DNA from: Hoyosella sp. YIM 151337
GTDB lineage: Bacteria > Actinomycetota > Actinomycetes > Mycobacteriales > Mycobacteriaceae
Reading direction: 5' to 3'
DNA length: 24,000 nt
NCBI RefSeq assembly: GCF_026041215.1
Contig: NZ_JAPEIQ010000006.1
Coordinates: 116,146 to 140,145, forward strand
Shown here piece after piece: positions 35 through 9,227 of this stretch (position 1 is the first letter of the stretch; every line of letters begins with the position of its first letter). The position numbers were made by a program, and so were the translations under genes. The notes beneath the pieces were generated by a model. The model saw only the letters and a list, made by a program, of their open reading frames with translations. It ran no database searches and was not told the DNA's origin.

Positions 35-1696
35 ATGACTACCGCCACGGCCCGCCGGCGCGGCCCCGAGGTCATGGGCTCCGGGGGTGCCCGCCACCCC
101 TTCGCGGGTACCGCGACCATGACACGGCTGGCATTGCGCCGCGACCGAATCCGGGTGCCCGTCTGGGTCGGTGCACTCACCCTGCTCACTGTCGGCAGCC
201 TGCAGAGCTTCCGCGACACGTATCCCACGCTCGAAGACCGGCAGACCGTGGCGCAACTCGCGGATCTGCCGGCCATGATCGGCATGGTTGGGCGTAGTTA
301 CCAGCCGCAGGACTACAACTTCGGTGTGATGCTGGGCCACCAGATGACGGTCATGACGGCACTGGTGTTCGGTCTGATGAGCATTTTGCTGATGGTGCGG
401 CACACGCGGGCCGAGGAAGAAGCCGGACGCGCGGAGCTGCTGCGCTCCAGCGTTGTCGGGCGCCATGCGACGCTCGCGTCTGCGCTTATCCTCGTCGTCA
501 GCGCGAACCTTTTGGCGGGACTGCTGACCGCGCTCGGCGTTGCCAGCAGCGGGCTTGAGGGAATCACGACAAGCGGGTCATTCCTGTACGGCGCGAGCCT
601 GGCCGCCGCTGGCATCGTTTTCGCGGGCGTCACCGCGATCACTGTCCAGATCACTGAGTATGGGCGCGGCGCCATGGGCATGGCGCTCGGCGTACTGGGG
701 GGTGCGTACGCCCTCCGCGCGGCGGGCGACATTGGTGAGAACTTCCTGCGCTGGCTCTCACCCCTTTTCTGGGGACAAGCGTCGCGGCCATTCGCCGTCG
801 ACGAGCGCTGGTGGCCACTCGCACTAACCCTGGCTACGGCTGGAATTCTGATCCTCGTTGGCTTCCGGATGAGCATCATGCGCGATGTCGGCGCAGGACT
901 TCGACCACCCAAGCTCGGCGCTCCGGAGGGGTCCGCAGCCCTGACAAATCCGCTCGGATTCGCCGTACGGCTGCAGCGCGCTGCGGCGATCGCCTGGATC
1001 GCGGGCCTCGCCGTTTTTGGACTGACCTACGGAATGCTCGTCAACGGCGTGGAAGACATGCTTGAGCAACTCACTGCCCTCGGTGACGTTCTGCCTGACA
1101 TCCCGGGCGCGAGCCTCGTCGATTCCTGGGTCGCGATGCTGATCACCTTCCTGTCGATCATCGCGTCGATCCAGGCGGTGCTCGCCGTCAACCGGTTGCG
1201 CAGCGAGGAAAACGCGGGGCGCGCCGAACCCATTCTCGCCACTGGTGTTTCGCGCAGCCGCTGGATGGGGAGCCACCTCACCGTCGCGTTCGTCAGCAGC
1301 GCGCTAGTCGTGATGGCTGCAGGGCTCGGCCTCGGCGGTGCTGGTGCAATCGCGTTGGGTGACCCGGAATTCCTCGTCCGAATGCTGGGCGCGGCAGCTG
1401 CGCATATCCCGGCGGTGTGGTTCGCGGTCGGAGTTGCGGCGGCATTGTTCGGCGTTGCGCCGCGACTGCAGGGACTCGCTTGGGTTATCCCGGTCTACGG
1501 CGTCCTCGTCGTGTACATGGGTGCGATTTTCGGATTCCCCGAATGGATGTACAACTACTCGCCGTTCGGCCATATCTCCGAAGTACCCGCTGCGCCTCTC
1601 GAGTGGACTCCGCTGATCGTCCTGATTGCGCTCACGGCGGCACTGACCACCGCGGGGCTCGCCGGTTTCCGGCGCCGCGATCTCGAATCGAAGTAG
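35..1696 (+). CDS. ABC-2-type exporter permease (large multi-pass membrane protein)
   Basis: 553-aa ORF with AGGAG about 8 nt upstream of the ATG at 35. Many hydrophobic segments in two halves, as in stand-alone ABC-2 antibiotic-exporter permeases. The partner ATPase is presumably upstream of the window. Confidence 0.7.
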   Translation: MTTATARRRGPEVMGSGGARHPFAGTATMTRLALRRDRIRVPVWVGALTLLTVGSLQSFRDTYPTLEDRQTVAQLADLPAMIGMVGRSYQPQDYNFGVMLGHQMTVMTALVFGLMSILLMVRHTRAEEEAGRAELLRSSVVGRHATLASALILVVSANLLAGLLTALGVASSGLEGITTSGSFLYGASLAAAGIVFAGVTAITVQITEYGRGAMGMALGVLGGAYALRAAGDIGENFLRWLSPLFWGQASRPFAVDERWWPLALTLATAGILILVGFRMSIMRDVGAGLRPPKLGAPEGSAALTNPLGFAVRLQRAAAIAWIAGLAVFGLTYGMLVNGVEDMLEQLTALGDVLPDIPGASLVDSWVAMLITFLSIIASIQAVLAVNRLRSEENAGRAEPILATGVSRSRWMGSHLTVAFVSSALVVMAAGLGLGGAGAIALGDPEFLVRMLGAAAAHIPAVWFAVGVAAALFGVAPRLQGLAWVIPVYGVLVVYMGAIFGFPEWMYNYSPFGHISEVPAAPLEWTPLIVLIALTAALTTAGLAGFRRRDLESK

Positions 1697-1719
1697 GCCG
1701 TTTTTTCGCCAGTACTTGG

Positions 1720-1753
1720 CCGCCCCGACGCTGTTCACGAAGCGTCGGGGCGG
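1720..1753. terminator. GC-rich hairpin between convergent genes (bidirectional terminator candidate)
   Basis: ccgccccgacgct (1720-1732) pairs perfectly with agcgtcggggcgg (1741-1753) around an 8-nt loop. It lies between the permease stop (1696) and the mini-ORF stop (1760). Confidence 0.55.
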
Positions 1754-1759
1754 TTCCCG

Positions 1760-1900
1760 TTAGGACGGCAGATTGAACCAGCCCTGGCTGAAGGTCCAGC
1801 CAGAACTGAACGGGAAGGTATCGGCGGTCAGGAAATCAATGATTGAGCCCAGCGAGATTTCCGGCAGTGCCATGTTGATCAGGTCGAGAATGATGTCCAT
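1760..1900 (-). CDS. unannotated 46-aa anionic Phe/Trp/Ser-rich mini-protein (PorA/PorH-like candidate)
   Basis: Manual translation: MDIILDLINMALPEISLGSIIDFLTADTFPFSSGWTFSQGWFNLPS. AAGGAG lies 7 nt upstream of the ATG, and an in-frame stop sits directly upstream. Third codon positions are G/C-rich (all Phe = TTC). It starts 42 nt downstream of the esterase stop on the same strand. It is a paralog of the ORF at 3082..3195. Confidence 0.6.
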   Translation of the reverse strand: MDIILDLINMALPEISLGSIIDFLTADTFPFSSGWTFSQGWFNLPS

Positions 1901-1942
1901 TCACGCGCTCCTTACGGAAAGTAGTTGTGCCACCTAAATGAT

Positions 1943-2986
1943 CTATCCGAGCCCGATCGCTTCGCTGAGGATTGGCCACGAAACGCGGAGATCTTCTTCC
2001 CAGTAGGCCCATGAGTGCGTCCCAGCGGGGCGCAGGTTGATGTGCGCCGGGATGTTCAGCTCATCAAGGCGGCGGGCGAAGTCCACGGTGCATTGATAGG
2101 TGGCGGCTTCGAGAAGCCCGCCGACAACGAGGAGGTTCGCATACCTCGCCGGACTTCCCTGCACGAAGTCGTTGTCGAACGTGTCGTATGGTCCCGGAAG
2201 CCCGGTGGCACTAGAGACGTAAACGACTGTCCCCCGCAGCCCTTCAGCATTGAGGTACGGATCGTACTCACGCCAGGCGGGCGAGCCTGATGGTCCCCAC
2301 ATGTTGTCGACGTCGCCCGGGCCAGCCAGCACCGTTCGCACATAGAATTCGCCAAGCCGATCACTGGTTCTGGCGCACCCGCTGTAAGAACCTACGGCGT
2401 CATAGACCTCTGGCGCAGCTATCGCGAGGGCAAGCACCGACGTCGCTGACATCGACAAACCCGCGATAGCGTTGCGGCCCGTGGCGCCGAGCGCGGTATC
2501 GACAATGGGCGGCAATTCGCGAGTTAAGAAGGTTTCCCACTTGACGATTCCAAGGTCCGGGTCCTCGTTAATCCAGTCTGTGTAGTACGTGTACGCGCCG
2601 CCAATGGGCGTCACCACGTTGACATTCTTGTCCATGAAGAAGCCGAAGAGATCGGTCCGCTCACGCCAGGTGGCCGAGTCTTCTCCCCCGCCTGCACCGT
2701 TCAGCAAGTACAGAGTCGGGCGTGCAACCGAGTTGTCGGCCGGAGTGATCACCTCGAGCGGAATGACCTTTTGCATCGCCGCCGAGTAGACGTAAAGCAT
2801 CGCCTCGCGGTCACTAATGCGCTCAATACGGTCTAGATAGGAGCCAGTCGTGCTGACAGACGGTGGCGGCCCGGTTTCCGGGTCTCCGTTCTGCCCTGGC
2901 AAGCCGGGCTGCGCAGACGCGACGGATGACTGAACAAACAAGAGGGCGAGCGCGAGAAGTGCGCCCGTGCGTAGTCTGAGTCTCAC
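1943..2986 (-). CDS. secreted mycolyltransferase / esterase of the antigen-85 (PS1, Cmt) family
   Basis: Ag85 hallmarks: PTLYLLNG, VVTPIGGAYTYYTDW, KWETFLTRELP, nucleophile motif AGLSMSATS and His motif GTHSWAYW. Start chosen at the GTG at 2986 (GGAGG 8 nt upstream), giving a signal peptide (V)RLRLRTGALLALALLFVQSSVASA/Q. The track ORF extends to 3133, which is probably spurious. Confidence 0.88.
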   Translation of the reverse strand: MRLRLRTGALLALALLFVQSSVASAQPGLPGQNGDPETGPPPSVSTTGSYLDRIERISDREAMLYVYSAAMQKVIPLEVITPADNSVARPTLYLLNGAGGGEDSATWRERTDLFGFFMDKNVNVVTPIGGAYTYYTDWINEDPDLGIVKWETFLTRELPPIVDTALGATGRNAIAGLSMSATSVLALAIAAPEVYDAVGSYSGCARTSDRLGEFYVRTVLAGPGDVDNMWGPSGSPAWREYDPYLNAEGLRGTVVYVSSATGLPGPYDTFDNDFVQGSPARYANLLVVGGLLEAATYQCTVDFARRLDELNIPAHINLRPAGTHSWAYWEEDLRVSWPILSEAIGLG

Positions 2987-3081
2987 TCCCCAGACCTCCA
3001 AGCTCGAAGAAGGAGTTATTACCCGAAAAATGCGGCGTGCTGGGCGCGGTATCCGCGCCCAGCACCCGCTCGCTGGCCCGT

Positions 3082-3195
3082 CTAGCTGCCGATGGTCAAG
3101 TTCAGGAAGTCTGAACTCATGAAGTTGAACCATTCTGAACTGAACGCCCAGTCAGAACTGAAGTTGAACACCCAGTTAAGGAAGTCGCTGGACAC
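3082..3195 (-). CDS. unannotated 37-aa anionic Phe/Trp/Ser-rich mini-protein, paralog of 1760..1900
   Basis: Manual translation from GTG: (M)SSDFLNWVFNFSSDWAFSSEWFNFMSSDFLNLTIGS. GGAGG lies 7 nt upstream. All Phe codons are TTC and all Asn codons AAC. It shares an FxFSSxWxFSxxWFNxxS motif with the 46-aa ORF. It ends 95 nt upstream of the esterase start on the same strand. Confidence 0.5.
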   Translation of the reverse strand: MSSDFLNWVFNFSSDWAFSSEWFNFMSSDFLNLTIGS

Positions 3196-3642
3196 CGCAT
3201 CGCCTCCATCTCGAGAACATCACCACACACCACGTGCAGCCATAATGAGGTATATCACATTTGCGTCACAGAGAATCACTAATTGTGTCCCCTAAATTTC
3301 CGTCCCTAATTTGACCTACACGTTGATGATCTTGTTTCTAACAGACAGAAACTAATTCGCTAGGATAAGCATTTATCCGGTCCTCTAGGTACCCATTTGG
3401 AACAAAGTTGCCGTTAATGTCACGAACGTCCCACGAATCTAAAATAATCACATTGGCCACACGCTGCCTTGGCGAATCCCCAGGTCAGTCGTGGCTCGCG
3501 TGTTCGAACTGTTGCGCCCCGCTACGACCCGCCCGCACTTCGAACAAAACCAGGAGATGTGACCGAATGGGCAATTGCACTTGTGCTCAGCAAATCGTGT
3601 GATTCCTGGACGTTGCGCATTCGCAATCGCGTAAGACGGCCG

Positions 3643-4089
3643 TCAGCGTACAGCTTGCTTAACCAGGTCAGCTAGACGTGCCCAGCCCGTTTCGGTCACC
3701 TGGGTCAGCGCATACGATGTGGGCCATATTCCGCTCGCTTCGTCCAGGCTCGCCTCCGCGCTGAATCCGAAGGTCGAGAAGCGCTCCTTATCCATTTGCC
3801 CGCTGCGGAAAAAGCACACTACCTTTCCTTTTCTGGCGTAAGCGGGCTGCCCGTAGTACAGCTTTGGCGCGAGGTCCGGCGCAACAGATGTCACTATCGC
3901 GTGCACACGCTCGGCCATGTGCCGATCCGGCTCGGGCATCTGCGCAATCTTCGCGCGCACGTCGGCCTCGTCGGCAGCGGCTTTATCCGCGGCTCGGCTG
4001 CGCCGCTTCTGCGCCGTCAACTCCGCGGACCGCTCCTTCATCGCGGTGCGCTCAAGGTCGGAAAACCCAGAGTCCGATGATGCGCCCAT
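3643..4089 (-). CDS. DUF1801 (YdhG-like) family protein, function unknown
   Basis: 148-aa ORF. The C-terminal part (PKLYYGQPAYARKGKVVCFFRSGQ...FSTFGF) resembles DUF1801 proteins as I remember them. The N-terminus is charged and probably disordered. Confidence 0.6.
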   Translation of the reverse strand: MGASSDSGFSDLERTAMKERSAELTAQKRRSRAADKAAADEADVRAKIAQMPEPDRHMAERVHAIVTSVAPDLAPKLYYGQPAYARKGKVVCFFRSGQMDKERFSTFGFSAEASLDEASGIWPTSYALTQVTETGWARLADLVKQAVR

Positions 4090-4176
4090 GGTGGCTCCTT
4101 CGTCTGCGTCGCTGCTCTTCCTGACGAATCCAAGCTAGCCAATGGCGACGATCCGCACTTCTCGAATTCTGATCAA

Positions 4177-4634
4177 TCACGCTTGCGGTCCGCGCGGGTA
4201 GGCAACTGCCAGTGCCCATTCCGCTATCCGGTCGTCATACCCGTGAGCCGGGAAAGTGCCGTCAACAGACACATCCTCGATCGTCATGGAGACGAAGCCG
4301 TCCACCGTCCTGGCCTGTGGGGGCCAATCCGGTGTGAGGCTAGGTCGCCGCACACGGCCCCGGTTGTGCCGAACCGCACGCGCCGTCAGCGCTGTCACTG
4401 CCTGCAAGCCACCGAACAGAAACGCATCAATGATTCGCCACTGCCCCGCCAGCACGTCCGCCCTACTCTGTGAGGGATGCCGGAGGAGGTAGCAGGCCAC
4501 GTTAACCGCGTGATAGTCCCCCACGGCTGTCGACGTTCGTGATCCAGCGCCAGCAAGGCCATGAACAAGCCAGCGCAAGGCCCATACCGGCCCGGCGCGG
4601 CACATTCGCTGCACGCACTTTCCATAGCAGTCAC
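4177..4634 (-). pseudogene. DUF5946-like gene split by a 1-nt frameshift in a C5/G5 homopolymer
   Basis: The N-terminal part (4634 downward) reads (M)TAMESACSECAAPGRYGPCAGLFMALLALDHERRQPWG. The remainder continues in the -1 frame as DYHAVNVACYLLRHPSQ... to the stop at 4177. Adding one G at the run 4518..4522 restores ...RRQPWGDYHAVNVACYLLRHP... Confidence 0.6.
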
Positions 4635-4682
4635 AGTAGAAGTTGCCGTGGCGTCACCCGCAAATGCGGAGGCAAGAACTAT

Positions 4683-5252
4683 TCAACTCCCAATCGCGCG
4701 CTCTAAGACCGCACGAAGGTGGTGCGGGTTCGCCGGAGCGTTGTCGAGGAGGATTGCGGTGCACAAGCCGTCGGACGCAGCGACGAGGGCGTCGATCGAT
4801 TGCGGGTCCTCAGTGAGCGAAGCGGCAAGTTCGGCAATATTCTCGCGCCACCGCCGCGCCACGGGCCGCAACGCGGGACGGCGGGCGGCCAGGGTGGTGA
4901 GTTCGCGCTCCGCCAATGCTCGTTCCCGGCCCGGACCCGCGGACTCAGCGATGAGCTGGGCGAGGCCTGCGAGTTTGTCGCCAGGGCCGTCAAGGATCTC
5001 ACGGATCCGGGTGGTGTATTCGTCGGCGACGCTGGTAAGCGCAGCGACGAGCAGGTCATCGAGAGTGGAGAAGTAATACGTGCTCAGCGACGTCGCGATG
5101 CCAGCCTGTTTCGCAACAGTGCGGTGCGTGACACCGGCGGCGCCATCGCGCGTGACTACGGCCAGGGTGGCGTCGATTATTTCGGCGCGCCGCCTCGCTC
5201 CGCGCAGCCGACGGCCGTCGCGAGCTTCGCCGTCTTCGCGGGCGTGGTCCAT
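4683..5252 (-). CDS. TetR/AcrR-family transcriptional regulator
   Basis: 189 aa with an N-terminal HTH (RRRAEIIDATLAVVTRDGAAGVTHRTVAKQAGIATSLSTYYF). Located immediately downstream of the MFS gene and co-oriented with it. Confidence 0.85.
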   Translation of the reverse strand: MDHAREDGEARDGRRLRGARRRAEIIDATLAVVTRDGAAGVTHRTVAKQAGIATSLSTYYFSTLDDLLVAALTSVADEYTTRIREILDGPGDKLAGLAQLIAESAGPGRERALAERELTTLAARRPALRPVARRWRENIAELAASLTEDPQSIDALVAASDGLCTAILLDNAPANPHHLRAVLERAIGS

Positions 5253-6817
5253 GCTCCCTCCTCGCTCACCCCTACGCTAGCCGAACCGTCAGTGGAGCGT
5301 TCGCGCTGCGGTGCGGCACTGTGCCCGAGGCGAGGCACGTGGCGCAGCATCCACAAGCACAGCACCGCCACCGCTGCGATTACAGCTCCCGCGACGATCG
5401 ATGAGACGTTGAGGCCCCCGGTAAACGCGCGCTGAGCATCTTCAACGGCCCCGGCTGGGAGCCTGTCGGCAAAGAGGATGGCGCTGTTGAGGCTGTCACC
5501 GATCGCGTGCGACGCGTCCCCGGCCAGACCGTCGGGTACGGATACCCGAGCACGGTAGACGGCAGCGGCGAGACTGCCCAGCAACGCAACACCGAGGGCA
5601 ATGCCCAGTTCCTGGACCGTCTCCGATAACGATGCTGCCGACCCCGACTTTGAGGGCGGCGCCGCACCAACCACCATGTCGGTGCCGAGTGCGGCGATGG
5701 CACCGAGGCCGAGATAAACGAAGGCGAATCCGATCGCTACGGTGACCTCGCCGTCCAGGCCAACGGTCGCGAGTAAGGCGTAGCCGACGAGCGAGATCAC
5801 GAGGGTGGCGCCCATGACATAGCCGGGGCGCACGCGGCGCGCGATCAGCGGTGCCCCGATCGCGGCGACAAACATCGCCAGCGCCGGAGGGCCCATCCAC
5901 AGCCCAGCAACGAATGGCGTGAGTCCTTCGACCAACTGGAGGTACTGGGTGACCAGGAACATCGAGCCACCGACTCCCACGAGACCGACCAAGAGCACGC
6001 TCAGCGCCACGCTAAAGGCCCGGATGCGGAAAAGCGTCAGATCAAGCAGGGGGTCGGGTAGCCGTCGCTGCCGTCGCACGAACAGCAGCCCCGCCATGAC
6101 GCCTGCCAAAGCGAGTAACAACGATTCTGCTTGGGGTCCGTAGGCGGCCATGTGCTTGATGGCGTAGATCATCGGAAGAATCGCGGCGAGTGACAGAGCC
6201 ACGCTGAATAGGTCGAGCTTCCCTGCGGACGGGTCAGCGAACTCCGGCAGCAGAACTCGGGCCCCAGCGAGCACGGCTATCGCGATAGGCACCGCTAGCA
6301 GGAACGCTGCGCCCCACCAGAACGCGTCAACCAGCAACCCGCCCACAACGGGCCCCGCTGCCATGCCCAGCGCGAACATCGTCGCCCACACGCCGATCGC
6401 GACCGCGCGCTGGCGAACGTCCGGAAACATGTTCGAGATCAGCGACAACGTCGACGGCATGAGCGTCGCGCCGGCGACCCCCAAGAGCGCCCTGGCGACG
6501 ATCAGCAGCTCTGCGGTTGGTGCGAACGCGGCGAAGACTGACGCAGCTGCAAACGCGGCCAATCCGATCATCAGCAACCGGCGCCGCCCTATTCGATCCC
6601 CCAGCGTGCCCATCGTGACGAGAAATCCAGCGATGAAGAACCCGTAGGCGTCCATGATCCATAGCAGCTGCGGAGCCGAAGGCGTCAGGTCGGCGACCAT
6701 GCTCGGCGCTACCAGATACAGCACAGTCACGTCCAAGCCCAGCAGCACCGTCGGCAAGGCGAGTAGTCCAAGCCCAGCCCATTGGCGGGGTCCGGCCCGT
6801 ACCGAGTGTTCGTGCAT
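5177..6817 (-). CDS. MFS drug/H+ antiporter, 14-TMS DHA2 (EmrB/QacA-like) type
   Basis: Start chosen at the ATG at 6817 (GGGAGG upstream); the track ORF begins at a TTG at 6877. MFS motif GTLGDRIGRRRLL and many TM segments. The 3' end overlaps the tetR start by 76 nt. Confidence 0.85.
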   Translation of the reverse strand: MHEHSVRAGPRQWAGLGLLALPTVLLGLDVTVLYLVAPSMVADLTPSAPQLLWIMDAYGFFIAGFLVTMGTLGDRIGRRRLLMIGLAAFAAASVFAAFAPTAELLIVARALLGVAGATLMPSTLSLISNMFPDVRQRAVAIGVWATMFALGMAAGPVVGGLLVDAFWWGAAFLLAVPIAIAVLAGARVLLPEFADPSAGKLDLFSVALSLAAILPMIYAIKHMAAYGPQAESLLLALAGVMAGLLFVRRQRRLPDPLLDLTLFRIRAFSVALSVLLVGLVGVGGSMFLVTQYLQLVEGLTPFVAGLWMGPPALAMFVAAIGAPLIARRVRPGYVMGATLVISLVGYALLATVGLDGEVTVAIGFAFVYLGLGAIAALGTDMVVGAAPPSKSGSAASLSETVQELGIALGVALLGSLAAAVYRARVSVPDGLAGDASHAIGDSLNSAILFADRLPAGAVEDAQRAFTGGLNVSSIVAGAVIAAVAVLCLWMLRHVPRLGHSAAPQRERSTDGSASVGVSEEGAWTTPAKTAKLATAVGCAERGGAPK

Positions 6818-6841
6818 TCCAGCCTCCCGCCTAGGGATATT

Positions 6842-6880
6842 TATTTGAACGATAATACAAGTTGTACTTTGATTCAAATA
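6842..6880. promoter_or_regulatory. 39-bp AT-rich imperfect palindrome, candidate TetR operator / mfs-tetR promoter
   Basis: Centred on g6861, with 15 of 19 symmetric positions pairing. The core is tacaa-g-ttgta and the outer arms are tatttgaa / ttcaaata. It lies 25-63 nt upstream of the MFS ATG. Confidence 0.45.
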
Positions 6881-7085
6881 TCTCTCGTGCAGGCCGAGTG
6901 CAACGCTGTCTGGCGCTCAGCATTTCGGTGGGGGCGAGCCACGCGTCGCACGCACCTCTGGCGAAGCTGTGAGGGTGAACTTTCGCGATGGCGGCCGATC
7001 AGATCGAATCTGCCCTCTCGCTGGGAACTTGCCCGGCGCGCGGCCGGGGCAAATTCCCGGCAACAGGGCAACTGAGGAGTCCAAA

Positions 7086-7112
7086 CGAAAAACCCCGGCC
7101 AATGACCGGGGT
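7086..7112 (-). terminator. intrinsic terminator downstream of tRNA-Ala
   Basis: On the minus strand, accccgg - 7-nt loop - ccggggt is followed by TTTTT. Confidence 0.6.
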
Positions 7113-7124
7113 CTTCGCACACTG

Positions 7125-7197
7125 TGGAGCTAGGGGGAATCGAACCCCCGACCTTCTCGATGCGAACGAGACGCGCTACCAACTGCGCTATAGCCCC
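7125..7197 (-). tRNA. tRNA-Ala (anticodon CGC)
   Basis: Reverse complement: GGGGCTATAGCGCAGTTGGTAGCGCGTCTCGTTCGCATCGAGAAGGTCGGGGGTTCGATTCCCCCTAGCTCCA. It folds as a cloverleaf with the G3:U70 alanine identity pair, anticodon loop TT-CGC-AT and T-loop GGTTCGATTCC. CCA is not encoded. Confidence 0.93.
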
Positions 7198-7399
7198 AGG
7201 CGCAGTGATTGTGTCACTGCATCGGCAACCTTAGCAGGCCGCGCATCCGCTAGTGAAACCGGCGCGCAACGTTGTGCGCAGCGCCGGCGATATACCTGGT
7301 AACTACTCGGCAACGAACTTCGCCAGCGGCGTTTTTTGTCAGACCCCAGGGGCACACTGGATATGTAGAGGAGGCGCAAGAATACACCCCTGAGCAGGG

Positions 7400-7437
7400 G
7401 CGTTGCGGGAATTTCCCTGCCCCGCAACGCGTTTTCT
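7400..7437 (+). terminator. terminator-like hairpin plus T-tract in the leader upstream of the 7484 gene
   Basis: gcgttgcggg (7400-7409) pairs with cccgcaacgc (7421-7430), followed by gttttct. No plus-strand gene lies upstream, so the function is unclear (attenuator, sRNA end or REP-like element). Confidence 0.35.
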
Positions 7438-7483
7438 CTAGAGCACTAGGAGCAACAATGGTGTTACACCTGGGGAGGCCGCG

Positions 7484-8311
7484 ATGAATGGTCTAAAAGG
7501 CAGGACGGTCACTGCCGCCATCCCGCCCGGCGCGGACTTGGTTGGTCATCTCAACCAGGCTGCCGCGAAGCACACCCTTGCGCCGTGGGTTGCCGCACTG
7601 CTGGGCGTGGCCGGTGCGGCAACGCTGCCGTGGGGCATTGGTGTCTGGCTCGCCGCGGTGCCGATTGTCTGGTGGCTCGCACTGTACGACCGGAGAAACC
7701 GAACCGTCGCCGTTCACTACGAACTCGGCGATGAGGCAGAACGCTGGTACGGGCAGCTCACCGAAGCGGTACGCCAGCTCAAACTAGGTCACCACCTGTG
7801 GCGCATCGACACAGCCGGATTCGCCGAGTCACCCTCCGCCAGCGCGGGCACCGGCATCGATACCACCCTGCCGCGCCAGCCGATCCATGTCAGCACCCGG
7901 CCCGAGTACCCACTTGTGAGCAACCTGAGGGTGCCAACATTCTCCTGCGGGACGCACACACTGTCGCTGCTGCCCGATCGCGTGCTCGCACGCGCACACA
8001 ACACGTTCTCCGACGCGACCTACGATCTCCTCACCGTGTCTGCACGCAAACTGCGCTTCACCGAACAGGAGACGCTGCCTGACAGTGCCCAGATCGTCGA
8101 CCACACGTGGCTTTACACGAACAAAGACGGCAGCCCTGACCGTCGGCGCCGCGACAACCAAGAGCTGCCTATCGTCGAATACGGGCTCGTCGAGATCAAA
8201 AGCAAGTCCGGAGCCCGATGGTGCATGCTGCTCACCGACACCAGCACAGCAGACCAGATTGTCGAACTTCTTAGCGACGCACCTCGCGACGTGTCACGCA
8301 CGCATCACTGA
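7484..8311 (+). CDS. hypothetical membrane-anchored protein (orphan)
   Basis: 275-aa ORF with GGGGAGG 6 nt upstream of the ATG. Two adjacent hydrophobic segments (residues about 33-67) are followed by a soluble C-terminal domain. I recognise no family. Confidence 0.55.
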   Translation: MNGLKGRTVTAAIPPGADLVGHLNQAAAKHTLAPWVAALLGVAGAATLPWGIGVWLAAVPIVWWLALYDRRNRTVAVHYELGDEAERWYGQLTEAVRQLKLGHHLWRIDTAGFAESPSASAGTGIDTTLPRQPIHVSTRPEYPLVSNLRVPTFSCGTHTLSLLPDRVLARAHNTFSDATYDLLTVSARKLRFTEQETLPDSAQIVDHTWLYTNKDGSPDRRRRDNQELPIVEYGLVEIKSKSGARWCMLLTDTSTADQIVELLSDAPRDVSRTHH

Positions 8312-9069
8312 CCGAAGCGCCGAGCTCCTGCAGGAGACTCACCGAACCGATCGAGATGGTCAAAGGCCGGATTCTCATCGTCGATGCCTACAACCGACCC
8401 ATCACCGGCTTCGGCTGACTCGTCACGGCGGCGCTCACCGCGCAGCCGCGCCAAACGCCGCTCACGGATATTGCGTTCGATCCTCACCTGTGTGCGCAGG
8501 TAAACGAGATACCCTGCGAGCGCAACGAACGACACGGCTGTGACGTACCAAGCGTACGAGGTGAATAGGATCGCGACCACGACACTGAGGACCACGACAG
8601 CCGCTAATGCGATCACGATGCGCTGCCGCAGCGTGTAACGCGCCGCAGCCGCAATCTCGTCGGCCTCGGGATCGTATCCGCCCCGGCCGCGTCGCGTGTG
8701 TACCTGCTCGCTCTCGAGTTCAAGTTCAGCATCGTCGGGCGTGCGGTAGCCGCTACCTGCGAACCCGCCGGTGTTGTGAGCGCGAGAATCCATCACGTCC
8801 TCCCCGTGAATTGTGTTCATCTGGGCGTCGAGGTGCGCCCTGACGTGTGCCCTGACGTGCGCACTGTCTGCAGCACCGTCAGAACTATCGCCAATCCCTG
8901 ATTGGTTTTGTCTTGCCAGGCGGAGCCGCCCCCCGCCCCGGTGCAGCAACCGTGAAGACAGCGCACGATCCCCCGCGCGGAAGATCGGTTGCCGCAGATT
9001 GACGACCATCGGAACGAGCACAAAGAGACTGAGAACGACCAGACCAAGCCACAAGAACGAATTCGGCAC
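8305..9069 (-). CDS. 3-TM membrane protein with a long cytoplasmic loop; positional equivalent of Mtb Rv0996 / corynebacterial GlpR candidate
   Basis: GTG start with AAGGAG 9 nt upstream. N-terminal TM (FLWLGLVVLSLFVLVPMVV), a loop of about 125 aa that looks disordered, then two TMs (IVIALAAVVVLSVVVAILF, AWYVTAVSFVALAGYLVYL). Sits next to moeA-rimJ. Confidence 0.6.
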   Translation of the reverse strand: MPNSFLWLGLVVLSLFVLVPMVVNLRQPIFRAGDRALSSRLLHRGGGRLRLARQNQSGIGDSSDGAADSAHVRAHVRAHLDAQMNTIHGEDVMDSRAHNTGGFAGSGYRTPDDAELELESEQVHTRRGRGGYDPEADEIAAAARYTLRQRIVIALAAVVVLSVVVAILFTSYAWYVTAVSFVALAGYLVYLRTQVRIERNIRERRLARLRGERRRDESAEAGDGSVVGIDDENPAFDHLDRFGESPAGARRFGQ

Positions 9070-9227
9070 GGGTCAGTTCTCCTTCCCTGGTGCGCAGCGG
9101 GCCAGGATCAATTCGTGATCCTGAAGCAAGGCTAGGGCGAATAACGGTAAGACAACGGAAGGCACGCCGAAGATCACGCCAGTGAGATGCGGCGATCATG
9201 TGTGAATGACCACACGCGCAACTTTAG

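Follow-up and report, generated by a model that had tools for sequence, protein, structure and literature searches.

Acidic leaderless mini-proteins flank a predicted MytC/Cmt1-type mycoloyltransferase gene in Hoyosella: a candidate enzyme–substrate cassette

A 24-kb stretch of the genome of Hoyosella sp. YIM 151337 (Mycobacteriales, Hoyosellaceae), hereafter the window, carries a small cassette in which an esterase gene of the mycoloyltransferase type is flanked by two open reading frames (ORFs) for mini-proteins, pep2 upstream and pep1 downstream, all three on the minus strand (Table 1). Both mini-ORFs had been described in the original prediction, and when they were re-read from the minus strand their coordinates, sequences, ribosome-binding sites (RBSs), in-frame stop and gaps proved to be as given there. 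The RBS of pep1 lies 7 nt upstream of the start codon, and an in-frame TGA stands immediately 5′ of the ATG; the RBS of pep2 likewise lies 7 nt upstream of its GTG. The intergenic gaps measure 95 nt between pep2 and the esterase gene and 42 nt between the esterase gene and pep1. The two mini-ORFs had also been called unannotated, with pep2 masked by a 5′-extended esterase frame. That longer frame was found (ORF 1943..3133) and masks pep2. As to annotation, the statement does not apply to pep1, which is listed at NCBI as a hypothetical protein (ONR57_01925 / WP_265121170.1); it stands for pep2 in this genome, since pep2 is uncalled in the NCBI annotation of YIM 151337 and its exact sequence had no entry in the protein collection, though its ortholog in Hoyosella altamirensis is annotated as FHU29_000320.

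Table 1. Coordinates of the cassette, its regulatory features and the comparison loci.
Feature	Sequence	Position	Strand	Description
pep2	window	3082..3195	−	37 aa, (GTG)MSSDFLNWVFNFSSDWAFSSEWFNFMSSDFLNLTIGS; leaderless acidic mini-protein; RBS GGAGG at 3203..3207
Esterase	window	1943..2986	−	347 aa, GTG start preceded by GGAGG; predicted secreted MytC/Cmt1-type mycoloyltransferase
pep1	window	1760..1900	−	46 aa, ATG start, MDIILDLINMALPEISLGSIIDFLTADTFPFSSGWTFSQGWFNLPS; leaderless acidic mini-protein; RBS AAGGAG at 1908..1913
Hairpin between pep2 and esterase	window	3026..3069, including the U-run	−	terminator-like
Hairpin after pep1	window	1721..1752	−	12 bp
AT-rich conserved non-coding stretch upstream of pep2	window	3196..3375	−	holds the RBS and the block TGTGATATACCT
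ABC permease	window	35..1696	+	ortholog of the M. tuberculosis efflux permease Rv1217c (PDB 8K1M, E 2e-95)
Mini-proteins at the second paralog	H. altamirensis (L004)	3308..3499 and 3627..3773		
Mini-proteins at the second paralog	Lolliginicoccus suaedae (L005)	3548..3769 and 5042..5164		
Mini-ORFs	R. marinonascens (L013)	1684..1809 and 3710..3814		…GAMFFELILISLTFGSGE… and …GAWFELILISIDFGSGE…
Four tandem MytC-like genes	R. marinonascens (L013)	2494..3522, 3929..4972, ~5517..6428 and 6871..7941		
257-aa protein	Nocardia (L042)	3174..3947		match at 4001; also in L024, L036, L048, L043, L031 and L022

The two peptides have an unusual composition. Neither contains Lys, Arg or His, their Asp and Glu residues number five in pep1 and four in pep2, and every Phe codon (five and seven, respectively) is TTC, a recount that agrees with the earlier description. 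Their N-termini (MSSDFLNW in pep2 and MDIILDLINM in pep1) have no basic residue and no Sec or Tat signal sequence. Ser accounts for 9 of the 37 residues of pep2 and 6 of the 46 of pep1, and pep2 contains four SS[D/E][F/W] motifs and a C-terminal Ser. When small ORFs were filtered for a length of at least 33 aa, at most one Lys, Arg or His and at least three Asp or Glu residues, pep1 and pep2 were the only ones in the 24-kb window to pass; as background, related loci totalling 720 kb yielded about one such ORF per 23 kb. The two peptides also resemble each other: BLASTP aligned them with 14 of 25 residues identical (E 3e-6), and their Smith–Waterman score was 63, compared with 24 ± 5 for shuffled sequences (0 of 5000 shuffles as good). 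The corresponding pair in H. altamirensis scored 73. In addition, the 10-mer CAGAACTGAA, which had been noted as a shared DNA core, has just two occurrences in the window, one at 1801 and one at 3153. Together, these comparisons indicate that pep1 and pep2 are true paralogs, as originally proposed. The core common to these FSSxW peptides, which are rich in Phe, Ser and Trp, consists of two tandem F-S-[S/Q/A]-[D/E/G]-W units followed by F-[N/H], and all eight of them have a C-terminal Ser, with the endings ...NFNFS, ...NFTFS, ...IGS or ...LPS.

The pep2–esterase–pep1 cassette is intact in four Hoyosella lineages, namely the window, two lineages represented by Logan contigs (L089/L090, with 92% DNA identity to the window, and L001/L002) and the genome of H. 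altamirensis (L091), the esterases of the last three being 96%, 84% and 86% identical to that of the window, respectively. Relative to L089, all six differences in pep1 and three of the four in pep2 are synonymous, and over all pairs dN/dS ranges from 0.06 to 0.16 for pep2, from 0 to 0.45 for pep1 and from 0.03 to 0.05 for the esterase gene. The differences in pep2 are distributed 9/1/14 over the three codon positions, the indels in the mini-ORFs are in-frame, and the RBSs and start codons are conserved, the RBS and the GTG of pep2 being invariant in the four lineages. The mini-ORFs could have turned out to be non-conserved; instead, both are intact, and the substitution pattern indicates that pep1 and pep2 are real genes under purifying selection. 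Between the window and H. altamirensis (L091 5001..5111), the synonymous divergence of pep2 is low (dS 0.48), and that of the adjoining esterase gene is saturated. Such a low value suggests an extra constraint at the nucleotide level, a strong bias in codon usage or gene conversion between repeats within the gene.

The gene between the mini-ORFs encodes a protein with a Pfam Esterase domain (PF00756, E 1.5e-25), the N-terminus of which (MRLRLRTGALLALALLFVQSSVASA, followed by QP) reads as a Sec-type signal peptide. Its best match in the PDB was Cmt1/MytC of Corynebacterium glutamicum (4H18/8QHF, E 2e-74, 254 bits), and the scores of MytA/PS1 (149 bits), Ag85A (102) and Ag85C (91) were lower; over 294 aligned residues the identity was 43–45% to Cmt1 and 33% to MytA. 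The catalytic triad of MytC, Ser189/Glu310/His341 (PMC11927696), aligns with the esterase, in which GLSMSAT, GGLLEAAT and GTHSW correspond to GMSMSAT, GGIIEAAT and GTHSW of Cmt1, and a Cys pair (SGCA…C-T) and the insertion GLPGPYDTFD are common to both enzymes and missing from MytA. An AlphaFold2 model of the esterase, with a predicted local distance difference test (pLDDT) score of 77 and a predicted template modeling (pTM) score of 0.78, was searched with Foldseek; 8QHF and 4H18 came first (E 1e-25, 39–42% identity), followed by MytA and Ag85 (E 1e-19 to 1e-20, 28% identity). These results support the assignment of the flanked enzyme to the MytC/Cmt1 type rather than to a generic Ag85 type, a placement that refers to the paralogs with solved structures, with MytB, D, E and F of C. 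glutamicum outside the comparison; its transfer activity is a prediction. The enzyme that the original prediction had invoked as a model is thus the top match, both by sequence and by model, among the solved mycoloyltransferases.

The three genes had been thought to form a single operon, with the first hairpin only after the last mini-ORF. The hairpin after pep1 is not the first, as a 17-bp hairpin (3032..3069, minus strand) with one bulge and the loop AUA, followed by A+UUUUU (3026..3030), sits between pep2 and the esterase gene. Its folding energy is −39.9 kcal/mol (z −6.35), and 0 of 200 shuffled sequences were as stable. The hairpin starts 12 nt after the pep2 stop codon, the spacing being 12, 17 and 19 nt in three lineages. 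Its stem is kept in L001, L089 and L091, in which changes are confined to the loop, to G·U-compatible stem positions and to the outermost stem base; the U-run is absent in L001. Since this strong and conserved terminator-like hairpin splits pep2 from the esterase gene, a single operon is doubtful. The esterase gene and pep1 are probably co-transcribed because the gap between them is short, and in L001 it is only 9 nt. As for the hairpin after pep1, the 66-nt stretch containing it folds with −34.1 kcal/mol (z −4.5), and a hairpin is present at the equivalent site in L001 and L091; it is probably a bidirectional terminator that also serves the convergent gene for an ATP-binding cassette (ABC) permease. 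Both hairpins were established by folding, as a terminator consensus scan missed them.

No DNA of the locus is better conserved than the approximately 140 nt that precede pep2. Positions 3196..3337 diverge from L089 by 2%, compared with 8% for the locus mean and 22% for the next intergenic stretch, and two blocks, GCGAATTAGTTT and TGTGATATACCT, are nearly invariant across the four lineages, the latter being an extended −10-like sequence. Because this stretch is so conserved, 3196..3375 is a putative dedicated promoter and 5′ untranslated region (UTR) of pep2. A sigma-70 consensus scan found no promoter on the minus strand, and an Rfam search of 1500..3800 gave only a sub-threshold chance match to a microRNA on the pep1 terminator and none for the stretch upstream of pep2. 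A further reading frame, orf40 (3338..3460, minus strand), is among the gene calls of the Logan contigs, and its 3′ end overlaps the conserved block upstream of pep2. It was considered as a third small gene and rejected: L089, despite 92% DNA identity, differs at 11 of the 40 residues, and in L001 the frame cannot be aligned, suggesting that orf40 is probably not a gene.

MytC/Cmt1 moves mycolate from trehalose monomycolate onto Ser residues of small mycomembrane proteins of C. glutamicum. To our knowledge, protein O-mycoloylation and small leaderless mycomembrane proteins have been documented experimentally in Corynebacterium only, and the mytC/cmt1 gene of C. glutamicum is presumably not flanked by candidate substrates, unlike the Hoyosella esterase gene. 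The C. glutamicum proteins PorA (45 aa), PorH (57 aa) and ProtX (38 aa) have no signal sequence and undergo MytC-dependent mycoloylation of Ser; PorH and PorB end in NFSS, where PorH is modified, and ProtX is modified on its penultimate Ser37 (PMC5310785). Mycoloylation sites lie in flexible, Ser-rich motifs that follow no strict consensus, and adapters or co-localisation with Cmt1 have been proposed to account for the choice of substrates by MytC (PMC11066868). Cmt1 may also act as a chaperone of PorH (PMC13643282). The porins known outside Corynebacterium are MspA-like proteins with signal peptides (PMC9233653), and Hoyosella makes mycolic acids, with mycolic acid species of its own reported for the genus (Lanéelle et al. 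2012, as cited in PMC10778799).

Like pep1 and pep2, PorA and PorH are two small, leaderless, acidic and Ser-containing proteins encoded at one locus (PMC5310785, PMC13643282). PorA and PorH depend on a MytC-type enzyme, and pep1 and pep2 are linked to one by gene position; the C-terminal NFSS site of PorH is similar to the Ser endings of the Hoyosella peptides. The two pairs differ in that pep1 and pep2 are paralogs of each other, which PorA and PorH are not obviously, and in that their sequences are built on a Trp/Phe-rich repeated F-S-S-x-W core rather than on Gly/Leu-rich helices. Furthermore, PorA and PorH are co-transcribed side by side, whereas pep1 and pep2 are split by the enzyme gene and a hairpin, and PorA and PorH form porin channels, an activity that is speculative for pep1 and pep2. 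ProtX (cg2875), compared by description only, resembles pep2 in its length (38 and 37 aa), its lack of a leader and its Ser at or near the C-terminus, and it has no homology to porins (PMC5310785); adjacency of its gene to mytC has not been reported, unlike the arrangement of pep1 and pep2. The esterase, in turn, has the triad and the Cys pair of MytC/Cmt1 (cg0413; 4H18, 8QHF), the larger part of its segment 271–311 and a Sec signal peptide. The proposed resemblance of the peptides to PorA, PorH and ProtX is borne out at the level of physico-chemical class, as all are at most 60 aa long, leaderless, acidic and Ser-rich, with Ser at the C-terminus.

Relatives of the FSSxW peptides were sought on a large scale. 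A word-indexed search of 5.8 billion proteins found none outside Hoyosella, and a search of 1.84 billion representatives with a hidden Markov model (HMM) returned Hoyosella peptides only. Pfam gave nothing at E ≤ 10 for the peptides, those of other Hoyosellaceae included, and NCBIfam likewise gave no family. Three matches to the motif S[DG]W[TAS]FS[ASQ][EG]W in JGI metagenomes were rejected as due to chance, since all are rich in Arg and out of frame and have no esterase gene in their vicinity. The arrangement itself recurs. H. altamirensis and Lolliginicoccus suaedae carry a second MytC-like paralog, 55–58% identical to the window enzyme and 75% identical between the two species, which is flanked by acidic mini-proteins unrelated to the FSSxW peptides, of 40–73 aa, without Lys, Arg or His and rich in Phe, Gly and Ser. 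Two of these four peptides have a C-terminal Ser; other neighbors of the second paralog are a DUF3239 gene and an AMP-binding ligase gene. Farther afield, we compared, as a negative set, 80 listed MytC-like loci of Rhodococcus, Nocardia, Gordonia and relatives, among which the sole positive was R. marinonascens, with two paralogous acidic mini-ORFs in a locus of tandem MytC-like genes. At seven Nocardia loci, a gene for a conserved signal-peptide protein of about 257 aa stands immediately upstream of the MytC-like gene and in the same orientation. The C-terminal tail of this protein (GSLGxNGLGSxDGQLSSTGSxSDIxSDxxxxxIGS) is acidic and rich in Ser and Gly and ends in Ser; it may be a candidate mycoloylation tail.

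Because the peptides match the class of known MytC substrates in size, absence of a leader, charge, Ser content and C-terminal Ser, and because the enzyme between them is MytC-like, pep1 and pep2 may be mycomembrane peptides and substrates of the adjacent enzyme, in an envelope cassette specific to Hoyosella. We consider this substrate reading the most likely one and give it an even chance. The recurrence of such peptides beside a second MytC-like paralog and in the R. marinonascens array supports it, as does the presence of mycolic acids in the genus. If it is correct, pep2 would be transcribed strongly from its own conserved promoter, and the conserved hairpin would let only part of the transcripts pass into the esterase gene and pep1, yielding much substrate and little enzyme. 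In lantibiotic and other operons for ribosomally synthesized and post-translationally modified peptides (RiPPs), a precursor gene with a strong promoter, a leaky terminator and an enzyme gene likewise provide a high ratio of substrate to enzyme. The cassette resembles this layout of small gene, hairpin and enzyme gene in expression logic alone; unlike RiPP operons, it has neither a leader peptide nor RiPP enzymes, and the proposed lipidation would be extracytoplasmic. Export of the peptides would be independent of Sec, along whichever route PorA, PorH and ProtX take (PMC13643282). The enzyme would then O-mycoloylate either the invariant C-terminal Ser or Ser residues of the F-S-S-[D/E/G]-W repeats, and the mycolate would anchor the peptides in the mycomembrane. 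By analogy with PorA and PorH, one may speculate that the two paralogs associate as a hetero-oligomeric channel.

Several observations weigh against this reading. According to the searches above, the FSSxW family is confined to one genus, and no homology links the peptide sequences with PorA, with PorH or with a family of Pfam or NCBIfam. The co-occurrence of enzyme and peptides holds in Hoyosella and at the second Hoyosellaceae paralog and breaks down beyond, as 79 of the 80 listed Rhodococcus, Nocardia and Gordonia loci have no adjoining mini-ORF of this kind. As far as we know, cmt1 of C. glutamicum is not adjacent to porHA or protX either; the linkage is therefore not general. The esterase counterpart of the flexible Cmt1 segment 271–311 aligns with it and includes the insertion missing from MytA, but is 5 residues shorter; a loop characteristic of MytC has been credited with peptide specificity (Huc et al. 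2013, cited in PMC5310785). Finally, an AlphaFold2 model of pep1, based on a five-sequence alignment, was uninformative, with two short helices, a disordered C-terminus and a pLDDT of 55.

The peptides could instead be real envelope or membrane proteins that the esterase does not modify, the esterase being an ordinary trehalose/arabinogalactan mycolyltransferase and the adjacency reflecting co-regulation or synteny. The four cassette-bearing lineages belong to one genus, which makes conserved gene order by itself weak evidence. Moreover, Hoyosella and its relatives have several MytC-like paralogs, not all of which need modify proteins, and some orthologues from other genera failed to act on porins in C. 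glutamicum (PMC5310785). Synteny alone is insufficient as an explanation, however, because the class of peptides recurs beside a different MytC-like paralog, in another synteny and with unrelated sequences, and it is the protein-acylating MytC in particular that stands nearest to the enzyme among its solved relatives. We regard a cassette without an enzyme–substrate relationship as rather unlikely, and as the most credible of the competing explanations. That the mini-ORFs are chance frames encoding nothing is scarcely credible: they are very short, belong to no database family and include one that is uncalled in the NCBI annotation, but they stay intact in four lineages although the synonymous divergence of their neighbor is saturated, their substitutions relative to L089 are nearly all synonymous, their RBSs are conserved and their paralogy is significant.

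The position of the strong, conserved hairpin with its U-run, 12 nt after the pep2 stop and directly upstream of the esterase gene, would also suit an attenuator in which pep2 is a leader peptide, encoded by an upstream ORF, whose translation governs read-through into the esterase gene, so that the peptides would have a regulatory role. The abundance of Phe, Ser and Trp codons in pep2 and its unusually low synonymous divergence fit such a role. We nevertheless consider it improbable, since the paralog pep1 lies downstream of the esterase gene and cannot be a leader, the amino-acid sequence of pep2 is under purifying selection, the distance from stop codon to hairpin varies, and the gene that would be regulated is outside amino-acid biosynthesis; control of stoichiometry explains a hairpin after an abundant structural gene equally well. 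Export of the peptides as bioactive molecules, either leaderless bacteriocin-like or signaling, by an ABC exporter, in which case the esterase would serve for tailoring or immunity, was suggested by the convergent permease, ATPase and MarR regulator genes next to the cassette in each of the four lineages and by a weak MutG-like match of the permease (1.4e-5, far below the cutoff). This RiPP/bacteriocin idea was dropped, as the permease is a conserved ortholog of the efflux protein Rv1217c and not a bacteriocin transporter, and RiPP maturation enzymes are absent nearby. In addition, leaderless bacteriocins are typically cationic, whereas the Hoyosella peptides are anionic, and no ABC transporter is encoded within 4 kb at the second-paralog locus of L. 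suaedae. We therefore consider a bioactive role very improbable.

A broader form of the substrate reading holds that enzyme and peptides form a dedicated module, that F-S-S-[D/E/G]-W or the C-terminal Ser is the determinant of O-mycoloylation, and that MytC-type genes outside Corynebacterium tend to lie beside those of their substrates, as exemplified by the Hoyosella FSSxW peptides, the mini-proteins of the second paralog and of R. marinonascens, and the ...IGS tail in Nocardia. It is possible, and we advance it tentatively and with some doubt. If it were true, the mycoloylome could be mined by gene neighborhood and protein O-mycoloylation would be widespread in the Mycobacteriales. A literature search found no paper that links a mycoloyltransferase gene to genes for small peptides or names such peptides in Hoyosella, in keeping with the original remark that neither the family nor the linkage was recognised as described before. 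Small leaderless MytC substrates as such are already known; new here are the peptide family, the genus and the physical linkage of the enzyme with candidate substrates. The cassette thus provides a compact and genetically tractable candidate enzyme–substrate pair for testing recognition rules and is a first candidate for an O-mycoloylation pathway outside Corynebacterium. Gene neighborhood may offer a way to find further MytC substrates, and the FSSxW peptides are a further family of real small proteins, one that standard annotation picks up only in part.

As regards the surroundings of the cassette, the ABC permease gene, which has no Pfam match, is convergent with it in all four Hoyosella lineages, and genes for an ATPase, MarR and PIG-L follow beyond the permease gene in L001 and L091. 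Elsewhere, the window consists of conserved core chromosome, with genes for MoeA, a GalU-like nucleotidyltransferase and 5-formyltetrahydrofolate (5-FTHF) cyclo-ligase; further genes encode an MprB-like kinase, an HtrA-like protease and a pair consisting of a major facilitator superfamily (MFS) transporter and a TetR regulator. The segment between MoeA and pep2 (window 3460..9200, L001 1170..3787, L091 443..5001) differs among lineages, which places the cassette at the edge of a variable region. In the window and L089, this segment contains DUF1801, TetR and MFS genes together with several ORFs without a Pfam domain, in L001 it contains GlpR and a 153-aa ORF, and in H. altamirensis it contains genes for an acetyltransferase, GlpR, a DUF4236 protein and a short-chain dehydrogenase.

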